Assembly (NCBI GenBank): GCA_964016885.1
Contig: OZ024743.1
Location: 121,024,001 to 121,088,000 of the forward strand
Reading direction: 5' to 3'
Source of the DNA: Eledone cirrhosa
Lineage: Eukaryota
Length of the DNA stretch: 64,000 nucleotides
Below, one piece after another: positions 35,401 to 61,639 of this stretch; positions within the stretch are counted from its first letter, which is position 1, and each line of letters starts with the position of its first letter. The notes under the pieces were generated by a model. It was not told the origin of the DNA. It saw only the letters and a program-made list of their open reading frames with translations, and searched no databases. A program made the translations under genes and the position numbers.

Positions 35401-36903
35401 AACTACATAGCCATTGCTATAAGACTCTCAATAACTTGCTAACACGGAAACATCTACAATGTTCCAGAACACTACTCCAAAATACTATTTTACCTACACA
35501 GTCAGGACGAACATAAAACGACAGGCACAAACAAAAATAATAGCATTAATCTTAAACACAGTTAAATGATGCACGCCACAAGATGTAGGTGCAACGAATT
35601 GAGTGCGCATTCCAGTCACAAGTGTGGCTACCACCAAACTTACAGATATGCCAGAAAAAACTAGACAGAAGGGTATGTGTAGTATGCCCTGGATGTATCT
35701 ATACTCAGTGTATGATAAACAATTTGAAACACGATGTGCATAAATCAGTGTTTGAACAATTACTTACTGACCATACATTTGTGTGATGGAGAGCCCAAGA
35801 CCAATAAATATTAATACACATTTTAGAAAAGACAGCCTAGGCAATGAAATTGAGATTCAATATACTGCTGGTTGTTTTAGGTATCTACAATTGAGTCTTT
35901 GTATATAGAATTTGAACACACGACTCAGCTCCCCTGTTTTTGTTATACACCGCCCTTATATAAGTAAGCGATATCAGAAATAAGACACTCTTTCAGATAC
36001 ATGAGTCGTGATATAATGACTCTTTTCAAATCTTAGTTGACATAATTTCTCATTTTTGTGTTAGTGATTTTCTTTTAATAACCATGTAGATAATAACTTT
36101 TAGACCACTCTCACCTAAATACATAATATACCTATAATACAGTCAGTTACTAGAGGATACCGTTGAGTTATATCGATTTTTTTAAAACAGAATGTCTACT
36201 TAAAGAAGCTTCATATATTTGATGAACGAATGACAATGTACAACAACTGCGTTAGGAATTTCTTATTATAGCTTCATTCAGTGCTATTCCGACATTGGAT
36301 AAATGCTGCAACAACATTTAAACTGCTGCAGTGGAGATAGTGGTGGTGCTTCTAATACTTGTACCAACACTGCTACTTCTCTTACTGCTACTAGCACTAC
36401 TGTTGCTGCGGTTGTAAGGAATGAAGAATATTTCTTTCTCAACAGCTTCTACAAAGAATCATAAATATAAATATAACTATAGTAAATATAAGTTAACAAA
36501 ATTTTAGAAGTTGAGGTCTATTGCCTGAATAGAAAATGAAATAGATTTATTTAAAATAGAAAAAGACGTAGACTAGCTTTAATAAACATTTCACTCCATC
36601 TGCAGCTGATAAATATATGTCTATTTATAAAACAAAATTCTTATACTCGATATCTATCGCAAATTCAAAGCGTATTTCTATACATATTCTTATAAAAAGT
36701 GATGAAAATAGAATGTTGTTTGCCAATGGATGTAATAGAAGCTATAGAAAACCACTACATATGGTTATGTGTGTATATATATATATTTATATATATATGT
36801 GGGGGGGGGGGGTGTATGTGTGTGTGTGCGCGTGTGTATGTGTATCTCTATATATATATATACATATATATATATTATATATACATATATATATATATAT
36901 ATG

Positions 36904-37029: not shown

Positions 37030-37601
37030 ATGTGTGCGTATATGTGTGTGTATATATCTATATCTATCTATCTATCTCTCTATCTCTCTCTCTCTCTCAC
37101 ACTCTCTCTCTCACTCTCTCTCTCTCTCTATATATATATAGGAAAAGTATGACCCCGACGGCAGAGGTCAAGCCGTTTCGACGGCTATTTCTGGACTAAA
37201 TTAGAATTTTTAGCCTGGTGAATAAATAGCCGAACTTTTAAAGGGGGTACTTCCTTATATGGGAAGATTGTAGTTGTCAAGAGGATTGGTTAAAATTTGT
37301 TGTAAACACAAATAAGTCTATCATGGCATTTGGTGGGAGGTAGGGGTGGCTGAACTTGCCTGTAGAAAAATAGGGCAGTGATAGGAGCGGTCAAGCGTTG
37401 AAAATGATATTTTATACAGCAGATTCTGAGGATAGAGTATGAAGTGGAGGAGGGAGGTTATAGGTAAATCTAATAAGAGTAGGAGACAAAAAAAGATATT
37501 AGAAATAAAAAAAAATATATATATAAAATTAGATAGTGAGAAATGAATAAAAAAAATCACAATGCTATCTTACAATTACAGGTTAATAAGTTGAGAAGTA
37601 C

Positions 37602-38594
37602 TTCGAAAATGATCTGTACTACCCATACAGGAAACCAAACGACAACCTGCACTACATCCACCGCCGCTCTAACCATCCTAGAAACATCACCAATAACCTG
37701 GTTAAAAACATCTCCTTCCGCATATCTCGTTTGTCCGCTAATGAGCATATATTCGACGAACACGCGCCTCATTACAACCAGGCCCTCGAGCGGGGTGGCT
37801 TCCGGGAGGAAATATCCTTTTATCCAGCTCCCCTTAGCGGATCCTGCAGGCGACACCGCTGCTCACGCAACGCAACGTGGTTCAATCCTTCCCATAATGC
37901 CGAGGTGGCAACACCTATCGGGAAACTCTTCTTTAGACTCTTCGAAAAATACTTTCCACTACAACACCGCTTCTACAACTTAATCAACAAAAACACCATC
38001 AAACTCTCCTACAGTACCACACCTAACTTCGCACAAAACATCGTCTCCTCAAACAACAAATAACTTAACCCCTATGGAGGAAATAACCTAGACATCAGTG
38101 GAGAGCCGACCAGGAGGTGTAACTGCCCTGATAGATCTACGTGCCCCCTCAACAACAAATGCCGAGAACGTAACGTGATCTACCAGTGCAACGTGAGGAC
38201 GGACACCTCCAACAAAGCTTATATAGGATTAATCGCGTGTGACTTCAAGATTCAGCTCTACCAACACCGACATACTTTCCGAAACCCGGTCCAGCGACAT
38301 GCCACTACACTTTCGGGACACATCTGGGACCTCCAAGATAATAATATAACCTACAATCTCACTTGGAGCTTACTGTCCAAAGCTAACTCTTACACGGGAG
38401 GACGCCGTCCGTGTAACTTATGCTCGGAGGAAACATTAAAAATGCTGTTTTCGAAGGAAACATTACAAATGCTGTTTTCGAAGGACCAACTCCTAATTAA
38501 GAAAGAGCAACTGGTAACCGCATGCAAACAATTGCGTATGACTTACCTCGCCCTCAAACCCCATAACGACCGGGAGAGAGGGGACAAGGGCTGA
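37602..38594 (+). pseudogene. PLE RT thumb plus C-terminal GIY-YIG endonuclease; one frame with one premature TAA (38061-38063)
   Basis: YRKPNDNLHYIHRRSNHP; CNCPDRSTCPLNNKC; VIYQC...YIGL; HRHTF; TLSGHIWDL; CNLCSEE; 27-nt tandem duplication (ETL.MLFSK twice). Confidence 0.92.
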
Positions 38595-39257
38595 TACCCC
38601 CCTACTTGCTGAATAAGTTAGGGGAAACCCCAGCTTACTTAGGTAGATGTATCTCTTATCTTTTCCTCTTTGTCTTCTCCCTCTTGTCTCATCCTATCAC
38701 TTCCTTCCACCCCCTATTTTCTTCCTCGTCTGCTTTTCCACTTCGCCTACCCCGATGCACCCCATCAAGCCTCTGTAGCATCAGTTCCCCCACCCCTGTA
38801 ATATTAAGATTGAAATGGCCGAATACGTTTTACTAACTACTTATAGCAGACGTGTTAAACCCCTTTAATTCGGTATCAGTTCTGGTACTACTCAATTTCT
38901 ACAAGTTGTTTCTATTCTCAACTTATTAACCTGTAATTGTAAGATAGCATTGTGATTTTTTTTATTCATTTCTCACTATCTAATTTTATATATTTTTTTA
39001 TTTCTTTCTATTATCTTTTATTGTTTCCTACTCTCATTCGATTTACCTATTTTATAACCTCCCCCCTCTACTTCATACAGAATCTACTGTATACATATCA
39101 CTTTCAACGCTTGACCGCTCCTGTCACTTCTCTATTGTTCTACAGGCAAGTTCAGCCACCCCTACCACCCACCAAACGCCATGATAGACTTATTTGTGTT
39201 TACACAAATTTTAACCAATCCTCTTGACAGCTACAATCTTCCAATATAAGGAAGTAC

Positions 39258-39352
39258 TCCCTTGAAAAGTTCGGCTATTTATTCACCAGGCTAAACATTC
39301 TAATTTAGTCCAGAAATAGCCGTCGAAACGGCTTGAGCTCTGCCGTCGGGGT
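39258..39352 (+). ncRNA. Type I hammerhead, U3-A8 variant, in the PLE 3' pLTR
   Basis: TCCC-TTGAAAA-G TT CGGCTATTT...AAATAGCCG TC-GAAA-CGGC TTGAGCTCT GCCG-TC-GGGG. Confidence 0.8.
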
Positions 39353-39761
39353 CATACTTTTTCCTAGTTCCCACGATACTACTCTAAGTATTGAGTACTC
39401 TGGTGCGTTATGGTCCATCTGGTTCCTTACCACAATTCCTTTTTTTTATGTGGGCTGACAGTAAATGATTAAGGAACTGCAGAAACCCAAAAAGCTAGAA
39501 TTTAACATCCTTCTAGCGGGTCCGGTGAGTTTTTACATTCATTTAATTTATTAATTTATTAATTTATTATTGGAGTGACCCGAATTTTCCTGGTCGTTTT
39601 TTTTTCGGGTGTGCGAATGATTTTAGGCATCGTCTCTATGTGTTGGTACTTTAACGATAGTTATAGCTCTGGTTCATCCAAACTATTGAGCCCTCTGCCA
39701 CACATGTCGAAGATTGTTTATCGTTATTTCGTGGGCCGAGATTCTGATTCTCGATTATTTA

Positions 39762-47950: not shown

Positions 47951-48266
47951 TAAGAACAACAAAATATAATAAAAAAGATATAAAGATTCGGACAACAGAT
48001 CCTGAGAGGCACCATCACCTAGTCCAGGAAATAAAATCATACACACCCAGACCAAACAAAAGCACACCTGCAACAATACTAACTGACAACATAACCACCA
48101 TCGACACCACCATCAACTTTACAACAGTCACAGCCACAACCAGCCAGAACTAAAAATTAAAACGCACAAACACACAAAAGCAACAGCAAACAAGAGCATA
48201 TAGACTATACCTCGTGTTAGCGAGGAGGACAAATAAAGAACTAATACCCTCCTAACACGAAATAAT

Positions 48267-48444
48267 TGTTTCTACTTTAGGCACAAGGCCAGCAATTACC
48301 CAGTGCATTACTGGTACTTTATTTTATCGACCCCGTAAGGATGAAAGGCAAAGTCAACCTCGGCGGGATTTGAACTCAGATCGTAAAGGGACGTAACTAT
48401 GCTAGAAAGCATGGCGTCCGACACTCTACCGATATTGCCAATCC
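48267..48444 (-). mobile_element. Young SINE with 12-bp TSD
   Basis: TSD ACACGAAATAAT at 48255-48266 and 48445-48456. Confidence 0.93.
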
Positions 48445-49565: not shown

Positions 49566-50676
49566 CACACCACACATACATACATATCTATATGTATATA
49601 TATACACAGAGGTATCCACTGTAAGTTGTGGGGTCTATTCTGTATGAAGAACTCAATGTAATCCATATGTTGAAAATGTTGTAGGTTATGATAAATCTCA
49701 GAAAACAATAAAACATTAAAAGGAAAACAGAGTCATGATATAAGTTAAAACAATGAAATAAAAAATCAAGTCATTAGAGATATACTTCACTGCTTTACGA
49801 TCGTTTCTCGATGGTGATAATACATTGTATCTATACTCAGTTATTGATCTATGTAAGTTTACAAACCATCAGATAGAGAGAATATTTACTTACATGCATA
49901 TCACCAGCTGTTTTCAAAAGCAATAATAATTTTATTCAATAACAATTTTACTCAGAATTAGTATCATGTCCATATTTGGAGGTAGTTGAAGAAATAACGA
50001 ATTAAATTGTTTTTTTCATATGGTGTTAAGATGAAAAGTAATACACTTTAGTTGAGGTCATGACCCTTTTAAAGGAATGGTTAAAAGGTGTTAGTAGAAA
50101 TGGCATAAAAATCTATTAGGAAGGAAGGGGATTGTCAAACTGATAGTTGAATGTATCTTGTATAGTGAATTTAAAAGGAATGTCAAAATAAATGCTGATT
50201 AGTGTTGTATTGAGTTTTAAGGTGAATATAAATTAATGTTATGGCTAGGAAAGATAGTATATTAAAAGATGAAAATTATAATAAGATAATGTGGTATAGT
50301 AATGCGATAATATACAACTTAACCAACAGCATATAGTACGGTGTGTTAAATTGCACTCAGTATAATATAACATACTATACGCTCTAAAATATTACTAAGT
50401 ATGTTTATGCATAAACAATCAAACTCAGATAAGTACATGTTGGCATAGTTAAAACACATAAATTTCATAGTCTACAAAGTGCACATATTCACACCACATA
50501 TAGAGAGAGGTACAGTTATATTGATATCCAAACAAAATATACATACGTGCAAATAGATGCAAACCTAAATACACATCCACGCGCATGCATATAATCATAT
50601 ATATACATATTCATATATATCTATATCCACACATACACATATACCCCCATATATACATATACATATACAGATACAT

Positions 50677-50729
<53 letters not shown>

Positions 50730-51055
50730 TACATACATACATATATACATGTACATACATATAGACACACACATACATACATATATACATACGCATTTAC
50801 ACATATATATATATATATACACATATATATATATGTATATATACATATATATATACATATATATACACATACATAGACACACATATATATATATATATAT
50901 ATACATATACAACACACACACACATACACATATATATATATATAGACACACTTGTGTGAGCATGTGTACACTAATCTTACATGTGCACACAATCATATAT
51001 AAACATTCATACATCTATACTCACATATACACACGCACAAACACATATATACCCC

Positions 51056-51090
<35 letters not shown>

Positions 51091-51240
51091 ACACACTCAC
51101 ATACATATACACTCCCATATATATATATATATATACACATATATATACACACATACATATACATATACATATACATACATACACACATACACATACATAC
51201 ACAACCATATACATATATACACATATACACATACATAAAC

Positions 51241-51339
<99 letters not shown>

Positions 51340-51699
51340 AATATATACACACATAAATATATATTCCATATCATACATAGCTGTTTATTTTCACTCATGT
51401 GGTTGTGTATTTTGTTGCCTTTAGTCATTAACGCATAAATCTAAGGAAGCTAAAACATTAAAAGGCAAAAATAAGCATGAATGCATATAATTAGGGGAAA
51501 GAGGTACTAATAAATGTTATTCTATACGGAATTATAGTGAGTTACTATTTAGAATTTTTAATTAGGTTTATTATATTTAATTAAGTTTATAGTATTTAAT
51601 TAGGTTTATAGTATTTAATTAGGTTTATAGTATTTATATGTTTTTCGTAAATGTTTATAGTATTTAAATGTTTTTCGTAAAGCGGTAAATAATTATAAA

Positions 51700-51912
51700 A
51701 AGAAAAAAATACATTTTAAGTTATTGTGGAACACCATTCTACAAAAAACTCCATATCTTGGAAACAGGAGGGAATGCAGATTATGTTCAGGAGAGATCTT
51801 GGAAATTATTAAATCTAAGGACGATTTATTAAATAAAAGACAGGAATTGATCATAGTCTGTAATCACCGTATACGAAAAACATTTAACTATAAACCTAAT
51901 CAAATACTATAA
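51700..51912 (+). pseudogene. PLE GIY-YIG C-terminal fragment
   Basis: WNTILQKTPYLGNRRECRLCSGEILEIIKSKDDLLNKRQELIIVCNH. Confidence 0.85.
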
Positions 51913-52161
51913 ACCTAATTAAATATTCTAAATAGCAACTCACTATAATTCCGTATAGAATAACAATTTCCCCTAATTATATGCTTTCATGCTTATTTTT
52001 ACCTTTTAATGTTTTAGCTTCCTTAGATTTATGCGTCAATGACTAAAGGCAACAAGGTACACAGCCACCCGTATTTGCATGAGTGAAAATAAACAGCTAT
52101 GAATGATATGGAAATATATTTATGTGTATATATTTGTGTGTATATATATATCATCGGGAGA

Positions 52162-52565
52162 GATGACCCCTTAGCCTTTGTCAAGGCAGAATTCTAGGAG
52201 AAGGAAAACTCTGATATAACACCTGCAACCCTGATGGTATCCAATGATGTTGACTTGTTCTTCTTTTTGGTAAATATCATCTTGGTTAAGAGAGTGGGAC
52301 TGGCTTTGTGCAGTGCCTTTGCTCACTATAAAAGCTTCACGGCACAGGCATTGCTTTATATCTGGAGATCTCTCTGCACTTGTCGTCACATGGTAGCATG
52401 GGCCCAGCACTATGTGTCAATAATTGTCACAAGTGTAGTGTTTGTACCAGAGTTTTCATGTCGCAGGCTGGACTAAAAAGTCACACTTGTTCAGCGCTTC
52501 GGTAGGGGTTCTCCTACATGGATATAAAGTAGTGGCCGTACTCGAAAACGAGTTGGCAGCCACCA

Positions 52566-52570
<5 letters not shown>
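52162..52570 (+). mobile_element. Bipartite RTE-derived retroposon
   Basis: Near-identical to 17632-18027. Confidence 0.85.
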
Positions 52571-52647
<77 letters not shown>

Positions 52648-52804
52648 TTATGTATGTGTATATGTGTATATATGTATATGCTTGTGTATGTATGTGTATG
52701 TGTATGTATGTATATGTATATGTATGTATGTGTGTATATATATGTATATATATATATATATGGTTGTGTATATATATGTGTATATATATATATGTATGTG
52801 CATG

Positions 52805-52835
<31 letters not shown>

Positions 52836-53158
52836 ATATATGTGTTTGTGTGTGTGTATATGTGAGTATAGATGTATGAATGTTTATATATGAGTATGTG
52901 CACATGTAACAAGAGTGTACATATGCTCACACAAGTGTGTATATAGATATAGATATGTGTATGTGTGTGTGTGTGTGTTGTATATGTATATATATATATA
53001 TGTGTGTGTGTATGTATGTGTATATATATGTTTATATATATATGTATATATATATATATATGTATATATGTGTATATATGTGTATATGTGTATGTATATA
53101 TGTATGTATGTATATGTGTGTCTATATGTATGTACATGTATATATGTATGTGTGTGTG

Positions 53159-53189
<31 letters not shown>

Positions 53190-53194
53190 ATATT

Positions 53195-54055
53195 AGAATT
53201 GTTTTAGAGTAGTGACAGTCTCACTTACTTTAAATTTTCAGCAAACAGGGGGAGATAAAGCTGACAGAGCTATGTTTCATACTGATTGGTACTTATCAAA
53301 GCCAAGTACCCCACCTGTTTGCTGAAAATCATGAATGTTTGATTCTTATAGAATTTCTAATAATAATCAGGAATTGATTATACAGAGCGGTTGCCGGTCA
53401 AGCAGGAATTGAAAATTAGAATTCGCGCTCTGAAATAGCTATATATATATGAATGTATATACAGTGTATTTTGCAATACATTGTATGCTTAATTAAAAAC
53501 ATTTCGAAGACCTTATGCTATTGTTCGGCAAACAGGTGAGGTACTTGGCTTTGATAAGTACCAATCAGTACCAATCAGTACGAAACATAGCTCTGTCAGC
53601 TTTATCTCCCCCTGTTTGCTGAAAATTTAAAGTAAGTGAGACTGTCACTACTCTAAAACAATAGCATAAGGTCTTCGGAATGCTTTTAATTAAGCATACA
53701 GTGTATTACAAAATACACTATATATACATTCATATATATATATAGCTATTTCAGAGCGCCAATTCTAATTTTCAATTTCTGCTTGACCGGCAACCGCTCT
53801 GTATAATCAGTTCCTGATTATTACTAGAAATTCTATATGAATCAAACATTCATGATTTTCAGCAAACAGGTGGGGTACTTGGGTTTGATAAGTACCAATC
53901 AGTACGAAACATAGCTCTGTCAGCTTTATCTCCCCCTGTTTGCTGAAAATTTAAAGAAAGTGAGACTGTCACTACTCTAAAATAATAGCATAAGGTCTTC
54001 GAAATGCTTTAAATTAAGCATACAGTGTATTGCAAAATACACTATATATTCATTC
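53195..54055. mobile_element. Retrozyme-like element: inverted monomer (53198-53525) plus tandem copies (53528-54055), period 324 nt
   Basis: HHRs at 53259-53303 (minus), 53547-53601 (plus), 53881-53925 (plus). Confidence 0.88.
53881..53925 (+). ncRNA. Compact type I hammerhead, U3-A8 core, GUC site
   Basis: GG(C/G)T-TTGATAA-GTAC CAATCA GTAC-GAAA-CA TAGCTC TG-TC-AGCT; enclosed by TTTTCAGCAAACAGG / CCTGTTTGCTGAAAA. Confidence 0.85.
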
Positions 54056-54933
54056 ATATATGTGTATGTATCTGTATATGTATATATGGGGGTATATGTG
54101 TATGTGTGGATATAGATATATATGGATATGTATATATATGATTATATGCATGCGTGTGGATGTGTATTTAGGTTTGCATCTATTTGCACGTATGTATATT
54201 TTGGTTGGATATCAATATAACTGTACCTCTCTCTATATGTGGTGTGAATATGTGCACTCTGTAGACTATGAAATTTATGTGTTTTAACTATGCCAACATG
54301 TACTTATCTGAGTTTGATTGTTTATGCATAAACATACTTAGTAATATTTTAGAGCGTATAGTATGTTATATTATACTGAGTGCAATTTAACACACCGTAC
54401 TATATGCTGTTGGTTAAGTTGTATATTATCGCATTACTATATTACATTACGATCTGAGTTCAAATCCCGCCGAGGTTGACTTTGCCTTTCATCCTTACGG
54501 GGTCGATAAAATAAAGTACCAGTAATGAACTGGTGATTTGCTGGCCTTGTGCCTTAAGTAGAAACAATTATCTTATTGTAATTTTCATCTTTTAATATAC
54601 TATCTTTCCTAGCCATAACATTAATTTATATTCACCTTAAAACTCAATACAACACTAATCAGCATTTATTTTGACATTCCTTTTAAATTCACTATACAAG
54701 ATACATTCAACTATCGGTTTGACAATCCCCTTCCTTCCTAATAGATTTTATGCCATTTCTACTAACACCTTTCAACCATTCCTTTAAAAGGGTCATGACC
54801 TCAACTAAAGTGTATTACTTTTCATCTTAACACCATATGAAAAAAACAATTTAATTCGTTAGTTCTTCAACTACCTCCAAATATGGACATGATACTAATT
54901 CTGAGTAAAATTGTTATTGAATAAAATTATTAT

Positions 54934-55065
54934 TGCTTTTGAAAACAGCTGGTGATATGCATGTAAGTAAATATTCTCTCTATCTGATAGTTTGTAAACT
55001 TACATAGATCAATAACTGAGTATAAATACAATGTATTATCACCATCGAGAAACGATCGTAAAGCA
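54934..55065 (+). ncRNA. Type I hammerhead, U3-A8 core, long stem II (mirror copy on minus strand at 49791-49922)
   Basis: TGCTT-TTGAAAA-CAGC TGGTGATA...TATCACCA TCGA-GAAA-CGATCG-TA-AAGCA. Confidence 0.78.
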
Positions 55066-55113
55066 GTGAAGTATATCTCTAATGACTTGATTGTTTATTT
55101 CATTGTGTTAACT

Positions 55114-55175
<62 letters not shown>

Positions 55176-56963: not shown

Positions 56964-57707
56964 CACCAACATCGGTGTTGGTGAATTCTTTTAAGAAAAC
57001 AACAACAAAGAAGTTGGTTTGCAAACTCATGCTCGCCCCCCTCCCCCCCTGTTTCACGCCTGTCTCAACTAAGAGATGTTCTAGTTGCTTACAATTGACG
57101 CAATCATATATGAACCTATAAGCTCATTCAATCATGTAATGGACCTCTAAGCTCTGTAAACTTCTCAGGGAAAGCCAACTTCATGAGTATACACCAAAGG
57201 GCTTACCTATTGACTGTGTCAAAGACTTCATGTGATCAATAAAAGAATTGTACAGATCAAGCTGTTGCTGTGACCCGTTCGTTCTGATCGGAAAACAAAC
57301 AGATTCCAGCAGAAGGGTAGGTGGAATGTGCATCGGCAGATGATTAAGAAGAATACTGGAAAATATATTTCCATAAATTGATGATAAATAGATCCCATGG
57401 TAGTTGTCACAAACAACGTTGGTTTTCTTCTTCAAGAGGGATTCCAGAATGGCATCCTTCCACTCCTGTGGCATTGCATCCTTCAACCACACCCGGTGAA
57501 TGCGCATGGCTTAGTGGTTAGAGCATTAGGCTTGCAATCGAAAGGTTGTGAGTTCAATTCTCGGACCGGGTGATGTGCTGTTTCCTTAAGCAAGACACTT
57601 TATTTCACGTTTCTCCAGTTTACTCAGCTTCAGAAATGAGACGATAGGATACCTCCAATGAGATATACCTTGGAGGAGGCCAGCTAAACCTGCATAGGTA
57701 TAAGCTG

Positions 57708-57793
<86 letters not shown>

Positions 57794-59720
57794 GGTAGTT
57801 ATGCAACATATCGTTTACTTCAGGACCAATGTTCAGACGTCTCACGGCAGTCTTCTCCCCTTTCATCGGCTTGTTAATGACGGGAGTATACTCCAAGGCC
57901 TCACTCACGTCGGGACTGACGAGGGATGCCTGGCTTAGAAGGTCGTTAAAGCGATCACATGATCTTGCCTTGATATCATTACGCTTGAGCAGATCTTCGT
58001 TTCCATTCTTTGACGTCAGGGGGGACAAAGACTGTGGTGGCTGGGCCATATATTGTGCGCAGTTCGTGATATAATGATTTAGCATCTCATCTTTCTATCG
58101 AGCCTTGTATTTGATGCACATTATCGCTCCACCATAAATCGCTTACTGTTCTGATTTCGGGCTGCACCTGCGCCGTATATCCTTTGAACGCCTTCTCCAG
58201 CTGAGATGATTTTCTGCACCTTCATTCGATTATAACAAGAGCCTGTCCACACATTTTTTCTTTTCCTTTAGAAAGCCTTCCATTAGTGGTTTATTTGCAG
58301 TAAAGCAGTCCTGACGTTTTTTCTCTGCATAATGCCAAATCGTGGCAGTTGTTTGCTGAAAGACAAGCATGCATCATCACTTTAGTTTACTGACCTGCTT
58401 CTTGAAAGTTATTTCGTTTATCTGAGCACGCCAATTGCAAGACGTTTATACATCTCTATACCTTGATATCGCAAGTTTACCTCATCTTCCGAATACGGAC
58501 ACAGAAAGTTGCTTTTAAGAAACGGTGATCCGTCAACACTCTGCCCCTCTCATACAAATGTTCAACAGAGAGATATGAAATTATACAATTCATTACTTGT
58601 TACTATCACATTTTCTGTAATATCCCAATGACGTGAATTTGGGTGCATCCAGGTCTCCTGGTACTTGTTCTTTTGTCTGAACTATATGTTTCCAATGACA
58701 AAATCAGATTCCGGACCTACCTGCAACAGAAGTCCATTCCTCTTGTACCTTCCAATTACATGTAATAGATTCACACCCGACACGAGCATTCAAATCACCC
58801 AACACTAAAAGTTTGTCATCCTTATTTTTCAAGACTATTCGCATATTTGCGTAAAATGTATCTATTTCTGCTCGGGTAATTACAAGATATGGAACACACA
58901 CACAGACCAAAGTTCTGATTTAATGTGGAGCGGCAATCTAAGTGCCATAATCGAATCGGAGACACCATTCAGAAGCACCAGAGAGGTTCTTAGAACAAAA
59001 CCCACCTCGGCCTTTGTTTAATAAAGTATATCCTGAGTCTGTTTTTTCTAGCTGGCCATCATCAGGTAGCCGCATTTCAGAGTGAGCGACAATATCCAGT
59101 TAATACCCCTGAAATTCTTTATAGATAACAGCAGTTCGACATTCACAAGGATTTGAAGCTGGTAAATCCAATAGCATGCGCAAGTTTCAGACACATTTTT
59201 CGATGTCATTGAAGATTTATTCTGTCCACTGTTTGTCTTGGTAGTCTGGTCAGCCTAGATATGGGCAAAGTTTGTTTCGACCACCTTTTCTGGGTTACTT
59301 CTGGTTAGCAGATGAGTAGTGCTACTCCTGGAAAGGGCTATTCAGTCACTTGGGGTGCTGCCGAGTCGTACAATTGCCTATGTCTGGAAACAAAACGATC
59401 AATATCCAAGTCGCCCACGTGTTAGCTTGCTATTACGTACTTTAAGGTTGTTAAACATGTGCACATCACAAACCTCCCCAATGCTGACTATTTTTTGAAT
59501 GAAACGTTTTCTGTTATCCGTTCAGGGTCTAAGACGTTTCTGTGTGTGAACTTGATTCTGGTGGACCTGGCTTGCACAGAACCACGTCCACTTTTCAGAC
59601 AAAACCAGCAGGAAAAGCTAATGACCCAACATAGTTTAGGGCAACCAGTAACTGATTCATCCTCAGGTTTTCTACTAGAGTTTCTCTCGCTTAGTATAAT
59701 TTTGGGTGGCCGCTAACTGT
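56960..59720 (-). pseudogene. RTE LINE 5' part (UTR, APE endonuclease, RT motifs 0-4)
   Basis: DKLLVLGDLNARVG; TWMHPNSRHW; MPQEWKDA...CDNYHGIYLSSIYGNIF; FDTVNR*ALW; GVKQG. Confidence 0.9.
57502..57792 (+). mobile_element. CORE-like tRNA SINE with (CA)n tail, nested in the RTE LINE
   Basis: TGGCTTAGTGGTTAGAGC...GAGTTCAATTC; CCTTAAGCAAGACACTTTATTTCAC. Confidence 0.7.
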
Positions 59721-60800: not shown

Positions 60801-60990
60801 GGGCGGTGGATTGGCAGTATCAGTAGAGGGTCGGACGCCATGCTTTCCAGCATAGTTACGTCCCTTTACGATCTGAGTTCAAATCCCGCCGAGGTTGACT
60901 TTGCCTTTCATCCTTACGGGGTCGATAAAATAAAGTACCAGTAATGCACTGGGTAATTGCTGGCCTTGTGCCTAAAGTAGAAACAATTAT
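60801..60990 (+). mobile_element. Young full-length SINE with ~19-bp TSD
   Basis: ATTATTTT(C/T)CTTACTTAGA at 60782-60800 and 60986-61004. Confidence 0.95.
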
Positions 60991-61639
60991 TTTTCTTACT
61001 TAGAAGATACAGTAACGTTAATGGCGGAGAAAGAAAAAAATTTCACAAGACATTGACAGGAGAGCAAATTTTACATCAGATACATCATCAATATAACCTA
61101 TCATTATTCACACCAATAGATTTTGTTCGCGAAAAAATTACTTAAACCCCGAATCGCGACTAAATTAAAAACGGTAACAATAATACTGCTGCGTTAACAC
61201 GGACACATTTACAGAGGAATAGAAATCAGTGAAGATTACAAACAACTTGAAACATAGCTCACAGAAAAATCGAAGCAGAACTTCACTATTTACATCGATA
61301 AACCACTAAACAAAACAACGATTATAACACGAGTCGATAGGAAAACCTACTGACTTGATATTATTCGTGATCGATCAAGCTGCTAAAGAACACCTAGCAC
61401 AAATTGAAGCTCCCAGCTTTTGAACATTAAATGTTCTACTATATTGTCTTGCAATTATTATTCGCCAGCAGATAAGAGAACAGAGATCGATTGAAATGAA
61501 ACATACAACCGAAATGGATCAACTCACTTCAAAGAAAAATTGACAATCTGCGGGGGAAAATGAGAGAATTCGATACTATCATCAAATGCGATGTAAATAA
61601 AGTATTCATGAACTAACCAGCTTCAACTGTATAATAGAC

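Follow-up and report, generated by a model that had tools for sequence, protein, structure and literature searches.

What kind of element is a noncoding unit with predicted self-cleavage sites 324 nt apart, how did it reach its present position, and does it give rise to an RNA of monomer length? These questions are raised by a locus in the window studied here (the whole 64,000-nt stretch of DNA that was analysed, counted from its first letter), for which a sequence-only reading had proposed a mobile, hammerhead-bearing unit of the non-LTR retrozyme type yielding a 324-nt linear or circular RNA. The first part of that proposal is supported by the layout of the element, by a descriptor search and by the many copies of the unit, and we consider it probable that the element is a non-autonomous, many-copy non-LTR retroelement of the retrozyme type that was mobilised by the enzymes of Penelope-like elements (PLEs). 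Taken singly, the locus amounts to a transposon copy in decay, for which nothing points to a host function.

Results

Layout of the element and its insertion site

The element is composed of an inverted unit followed by a forward segment (Table 1; unit numbering starts at the predicted cut, 53598 being position 1). The two parts overlap by 2 nt at their junction and the inverted unit differs from the forward unit by 4.3% substitutions, while within the forward segment a direct repeat of 180 nt recurs at a spacing of 324 with 95% identity. The 3′ end of the forward segment falls within the internal TA tract of the unit, and it is possible that this tract provided priming homology with the TA target. 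The sequence-only reading had described a noncoding tandem repeat at 53195–54055 with an inverted monomer upstream. The inverted monomer is present and the unit is indeed noncoding (no stop-free stretch of the forward segment exceeds 49 codons, and a reverse transcriptase/GIY-YIG ORF is absent from the element); a second unit does begin, but the forward units amount to only 1.63, and the extent has had to be adjusted to that given in Table 1. No target-site duplication is discernible at the flanks of the element, the site being a microsatellite. As both segments span the whole unit together with its cleavage site, a cleaved linear monomer would be excluded as template, and we infer that the insertion was copied from a circle or an uncleaved multimer. 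The inverted unit also bears a few extra bases at its outer end (53192–53201); with these included, the last 10 nt of this end are the same as unit positions 163–172, perhaps through a microhomology jump at priming and perhaps by chance.

Table 1. Positions of the element, its hammerheads, the surrounding palindrome and the neighbouring PLEs in the window
Feature	Positions	Strand	Remarks
Whole element	53198–54061		Inverted unit and forward segment within TG/TA microsatellite
Inverted unit	53198–53525	−	One full turn + 6 nt (from position 60 through 324 and on to 65)
Forward segment	53524–54061	+	1.63 units (positions 261–324, full unit, then 1–140)
Predicted 324-nt monomer between cleavage sites	53598–53921	+	34% GC
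Internal TA-rich tract of unit	53719–53744	+	Next tract copy contains the 3′ end of the forward segment
Left-flank TG/TA microsatellite (target site)	52953–53194		Resumes 54057–54148
Inverted-unit hammerhead	53263–53299	−	U3–A8; helix I paired; predicted cut 53263/53262
Hammerhead 1	53547–53601	+	Helix I paired; predicted cut after 53597
Hammerhead 2	53881–53925	+	Predicted cut after 53921
Hammerhead 2, helix II	53892–53895/53902–53905	+	
Hammerhead 2, helix III	53909–53911/53918–53920	+	
Clamp helix closing hammerhead 2	53856–53870/53935–53949	+	15 bp
Palindrome	49738–55118		5.4 kb, two arms
Empty site in sister arm	50675–50677	−	Unbroken microsatellite
First PLE, 5′-truncated and decayed	37139–39366	+	Adjoins TA microsatellite
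ORF pieces of first PLE	37590–38060, 38064–38591	+	Collinear, matching ~700-aa proteins
Terminal repeats of first PLE	37139–37597 (inverted), 38915–39366		90.5% identical
Candidate type I hammerhead, U3–A8, in terminal repeat of first PLE	39262–39347	+	
Second PLE ORF, C-terminal fragment, at palindrome centre	51697–51885	+	tblastn E 2e-7 to first PLE
Inverted repeats around second PLE fragment	51323–51593, 51887–52151		

The sister arm of the surrounding palindrome carries plain microsatellite at the equivalent place, in keeping with the earlier observation that the unit is absent there, and this suggests that the unit was inserted into the right arm rather than lost from its sister. Loss does form part of one alternative, that the unit is a DNA repeat, satellite-like or of the fold-back type, which was multiplied at the DNA level, with the hammerhead a dead relic and a deletion in the sister arm possible. 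Microsatellite flanks would permit deletion by slippage, a target-site duplication is unreadable, all three arm-specific insertions lie on the right arm, and the copies within the element diverge among themselves by 4.3–4.4% substitutions, more than the 1.6% that separates the outer segments of the arms. The inner segments of the arms, however, differ by 6.3% and 9.2%, and with inner differences of 6–9% the comparison of ages fits copies identical at insertion and a heterogeneous template alike.

Hammerhead motifs

The window contains three copies of a core that ends in GUC (53582–53597 and 53906–53921 on the plus strand, 53263–53278 on the minus strand), and the core positions confirm that the two forward sites, previously predicted after 53597 and 53921, are exactly 324 nt apart. 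In all three motifs core positions 3–9 read U3 U4 G5 A6 U7 A8 A9, as the U3–A8 assignment of the sequence-only reading would have it, and the conserved type I core with its 3–8 pair and GUC is complete. A strict type I descriptor gave three matches in the window, precisely these hammerheads, and one match in 20 first-order random 64-kb sequences. A relaxed descriptor missed hammerhead 2 as well as the PLE motif described below; an extra relaxed-descriptor match at 36029 (minus strand), which has no GUC, was taken as chance.

The family version of the hammerhead is of canonical size (a helix II of 4 bp, a loop of 6 nt and a helix III), and helices I–III can be formed both in it and in the inverted copy. 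The sequence-only reading described core and clamp soundly but made no mention of defects, which are present in all three copies. Hammerhead 1 contains a 10-nt tandem duplication that gives a loop II of 16 nt and a competing helix II, and in its predicted fold helix II is incompatible with the core. In hammerhead 2 the second pair of helix I is a mismatch (G53883 × G53923) where the family letter is C, and in the inverted copy a G10.1–U11.1 wobble replaces G–C. The 15-bp clamp described in the sequence-only reading is paired throughout at hammerhead 2, and it is equally intact in the inverted copy. At hammerhead 1 the inversion junction cuts its length to 13 pairs, one of them G–U.

Rfam and folding predictions

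An Rfam scan of the whole window at gathering thresholds gave no hammerhead. The only hammerhead match, to Hammerhead_HH9 (RF02275), reached 15.1 bits (E 0.19) where the gathering score is 52, and in this weak alignment helix II, loop II, GAAA, helix III and GUC are in register; the HH9 model has G at position 8 where the unit has A8, and by score the unit is not a member. The fold of the 324-nt monomer has a z-score of −5.85, with the clamp joining the two ends. The hammerhead cores alone (z −0.53 to 0.27) are no stabler than shuffles, and low folding z-scores are due to the clamp. The active fold was predicted to lie above the ensemble by 8.0 kcal/mol for hammerhead 1, 7.6 for hammerhead 2 and 5.6 for the inverted copy, these energies being modelled without tertiary contacts and without a known-active control. 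A read-through RNA was predicted to form a hairpin of ~330 bp in a fold-back over 53198–53986 (383 pairs, −581 kcal/mol) in which hammerhead 2 is buried.

These predictions bear on the possibility that a transcript of the locus itself sets free an RNA of 324 nt, whether linear or circular. Its two GUC sites at unit spacing with complete cores, and a stable monomer fold with the ends held together, favour such release, and in coral, mussel and axolotl retrozyme circles are reported to be plentiful (PMC7229834). Against this, helix I of hammerhead 2 is interrupted by G53883, hammerhead 1 bears its 10-nt duplication, the 383-pair fold-back of a read-through RNA would bury hammerhead 2, the unit has no match to the consensus of an A box, a B box or an octamer, and retrozymes are described as promoterless and dependent on read-through (PMC7761336). 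As both flanking hammerheads are defective and the monomer, in a read-through RNA, would be taken up in pairing with the inverted unit, circular RNA from this locus is doubtful; we regard release of a monomer in either form as very improbable, and a circle in particular as no less so. A transcript of 53528–53960 may not cleave even if the family is active. The locus more likely stays silent, or gives double-stranded RNA by folding back, than yields 324-nt circles. For the family as a whole we consider the chances that it makes circular RNA to be about evenly balanced.

The unit in sequencing runs

The unit is a member of a many-copy family in three organisms. The run search listed nine runs, six of which contain the stretch or part of it; no RNA run was among those listed as containing it, which has no bearing on expression. 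Family counts were taken in four of the nine (X1, X4, X5 and X7) against one period of the unit with 53663–53752 left out. Other copies of the monomer, on which the sequence-only reading hinged, do exist: 1614 contigs of X1, 26 of X4 and two of X5 fall on the unit, together with 4439 raw reads of X7 (summed depth in the runs is not copy number). These sequences also identify the letters private to this locus, namely G53883, T53838 and A53957; at 53883 the family letter C makes up 99.6% of X1 depth, 651/694 X7 reads and all of X4 and X5.

Among the variants listed (40 of the 44 variant rows), none falls at the 15 core positions, whereas 19 of the 52 positions around them are variable (Fisher p = 0.003; p = 0.02 if one of the remaining four rows lay in the core, 0.08 if two did). 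With no core variant listed, U3–A8 appears fixed in the family. At three pairs of positions the changes are of matching frequency. In the X7 reads (unphased in each case) 53893C (204/1009) is matched in helix II by 53904G (209/1025) and 53895T (69/1011) by 53902A (66/1002), and in loop III 53913G (64/1044) is matched by 53916C (66/1050), although such matched changes may stem from one subfamily. An invariant core and helix changes that appear paired across the family, among the variants listed, tell against a dead relic within a repeat amplified at the DNA level, as does a layout that is the PLE pattern (see below), and we judge that explanation to be the most improbable of those considered here.

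Loop III has a further property. G at 53912, which accounts for 82% of X1 depth and 802/1046 X7 reads, renders 53909–53920 wholly self-complementary, and all three local copies carry the minority T. Inside a single molecule 53913 and 53916 would have no more than a loop of 2 nt to close, so their matched frequencies hint at pairing between two hammerheads, and the family sequences suggest that the hammerheads may work as dimers through a palindromic loop III, a mode of cleavage via palindromic helix III that has been described for animal type I motifs (PMC4209133).

Two other features of the runs were noted. Depth in X1 over 53773–53827 is several times that of the hammerhead, and 1452 X7 reads depart from the reference at 53816 and agree on one consensus. 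The 53773–53827 module is thus common to the unit and to some repeat or locus of greater abundance. In addition, 200 of 620 first-mate-plus X7 reads end at 53951, just past the clamp, with heterogeneous continuations (agreement 0.36). Position 53951 is possibly a frequent natural 3′ end, although the RAD reads are a sample of few loci.

PLEs in the window and the pattern of insertion

Partial tandems, an adjoining inverted copy and a bias to microsatellites are traits of PLEs (PMC8557442; PMC8969392), and the element displays a partial tandem, an adjoining inverted copy and a microsatellite target, which is the PLE insertion pattern. Its two 3′ ends differ by 75 nt, as against the 30–40-nt tail described in PMC8557442. 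From this comparison the inverted monomer, whose significance the sequence-only reading had not noted, would be best read as a hallmark of Penelope-like insertion.

Two truncated PLEs lie in the same window (Table 1). The second ORF piece of the first contains a cysteine linker and a GIY-YIG-like end (Atlas 0.94; GIY-YIG, 34% of one cluster). Word-index protein searches with the window ORFs gave no match, and Pfam gave nothing useful for four window ORFs and a weak RVT_1 in just one of eight relatives. The terminal repeat of the first PLE includes a candidate U3–A8 hammerhead in which helix II is long and branched and helix III has 5 bp, and the helices of which are present in the unconstrained fold; it came from a relaxed descriptor limited to that stretch and without a chance control, and its counterpart in the inverted copy is changed at core position 5. 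The fragment of the second PLE lies between inverted repeats at the centre of the palindrome, so the palindrome itself may be a PLE inverted insertion extended into its flanks. Homology between the unit and the terminal repeat of the neighbouring PLE was considered and rejected: alignment of the unit to 38860–39366 scored 38 against a shuffle mean of 41, a score reached by 217 of 300 shuffles. The unit gave no blastn match elsewhere in the window.

It could be argued that the unit is itself the pseudo-LTR (3′ end) of an autonomous PLE, heavily 5′-truncated and with no independent circular-RNA cycle. The layout matches that of the two truncated PLEs in the window, U3–A8 cores have been reported from PLEs (PMC4209133), the terminal repeat of the neighbouring PLE has its candidate U3–A8 core, and the X7 reads ending at 53951 (200/620) are as a natural 3′ end would give. 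On the other hand, unit abuts unit without coding sequence in the inverted and forward segments alike, and the hammerhead is canonical with a 4-bp helix II and not the 7–8-bp helix of minimal PLE motifs. Moreover, summed X1 depth past the clamp (115,000–164,000) is not below that of the hammerhead (42,000–96,000), and the loose ends at 53951 in X1 run on into the unit. We therefore think it unlikely that the unit is a pseudo-LTR and retain a non-autonomous retrozyme-type element mobilised by PLE enzymes as the better explanation.

Discussion

A model for amplification

For the retrozyme-type element mobilised by PLE enzymes, amplification might proceed as follows. Intact family members would be transcribed as multimers and cut at GUC, probably aided by two hammerheads pairing via their palindromic helix III, and the cut monomers may become circles, the clamp holding their ends together. 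The PLE endonuclease would then nick a TA target and the PLE reverse transcriptase would read across the cleavage site of a template that was circular or multimeric, which would give rise to more-than-unit and inverted cDNA. The copy at this locus would have decayed since its insertion.

A more specific version may be put forward tentatively, and we think it rather less than likely as a whole: a parasite and its helper PLEs would both carry the rare U3–A8 core, the ribozyme would be selected as a dimer, and insertion would be of the rolling-circle type. The inverted cDNA would then represent one turn + 6 nt of the circle and the forward cDNA 1.63 turns, the latter having been started on the TA target from the TA tract of the circle itself. 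If this is true, inverted insertions would give rise to long hairpin RNAs, by which the family could be silenced; and if the host is a cephalopod, as an octopus-like landscape of SINEs and microsatellites may suggest, a retrozyme family would be added to a group for which our searches on octopus and cephalopods listed no such report, though supplementary lists might hold examples.

Comparison with known systems

The unit resembles the animal non-LTR retrozymes (Cervera and de la Pena, 2020, PMC7229834), as there presented, in being a noncoding tandem unit of 150–450 bp with GC below 50%, a type I hammerhead of canonical size, a self-paired monomer, many copies and no LTR features seen, and it shares the palindromic helix III of the axolotl/newt motif from the same source. 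It differs from them in its U3–A8 pair and in its arrangement of 1.63 tandem units plus an inverted unit. With the pseudo-LTR hammerheads of PLEs (Cervera and de la Pena, 2014, PMC4209133; Craig et al., 2021, PMC8557442) it has in common the type I topology, the palindromic helix III, the U3–A8 variant (in Schistosoma Cercyon), a tandem plus inverted insertion and a microsatellite target, whereas it has no ORF, a helix II of 4 bp as opposed to 7–8 bp and no extra base after A9. The U3–A8 core is not new: it has been reported in natural hammerheads (PMC3088659), and ~1,300 U3–A8 motifs were retrieved through Schistosoma Cercyon PLEs (PMC4209133).

Retrozymes have been presented as non-autonomous PLE derivatives by Li, Clavereau and Pollet (2026, bioRxiv 10.64898/2026.07.22.740005), in whose preprint one of nine predicted retrozyme dimers was cleaved in vitro. 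The present unit falls within the working definition given there, having two consecutive units with hammerhead motifs and PLEs in the same genome; the link drawn in the preprint is sequence similarity to Xenopus pLTRs, whereas here it is the anatomy of the insertion together with a common U3–A8 core. We think it likely, then, that the element is a further case of a known type, a Penelope-mobilised, hammerhead-bearing tandem unit. The anatomy of the insertion bears on which retrotransposon moves animal retrozymes and on the use of a circular template, and if the family is active it represents one more animal lineage with ribozyme-made circular RNAs. As the family escapes both Rfam thresholds and C3–G8 descriptors, U3–A8 retrozymes may be under-counted. 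In published cephalopod genomes, 235 hammerhead 1 loci are given for the giant squid (PMC6962438), and in the text available to us the repeat annotation of Octopus vulgaris (PMC13282606) lists Penelope families and the words ribozyme and retrozyme are absent.

A pattern scan of metagenomes gave 11 loci, all of one bacterial-looking coding stretch without helix I/III or blastn similarity to the monomer, and these were put down to chance; the same scan of viral contigs gave no matches.

Other features of the window

Several features were recorded in passing. Sequences confined to one arm of the palindrome number three, all in the right arm (52152–52567, 53195–54058 and 54447–54571), the last being a SINE-like repeat with 95–96% identity to copies at 48262–48386 and 60866–60993. 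A marginal tRNA-like match (29.2 bits) at 57507–57564 is probably the head of a SINE, and the neighbouring minus-strand ORFs at 57181–57510 and 57708–58094 resemble what we take to be LINE fragments. At the other end of the window, 17–1313 is a GC-rich minisatellite with a 38-bp period and higher-order variants.
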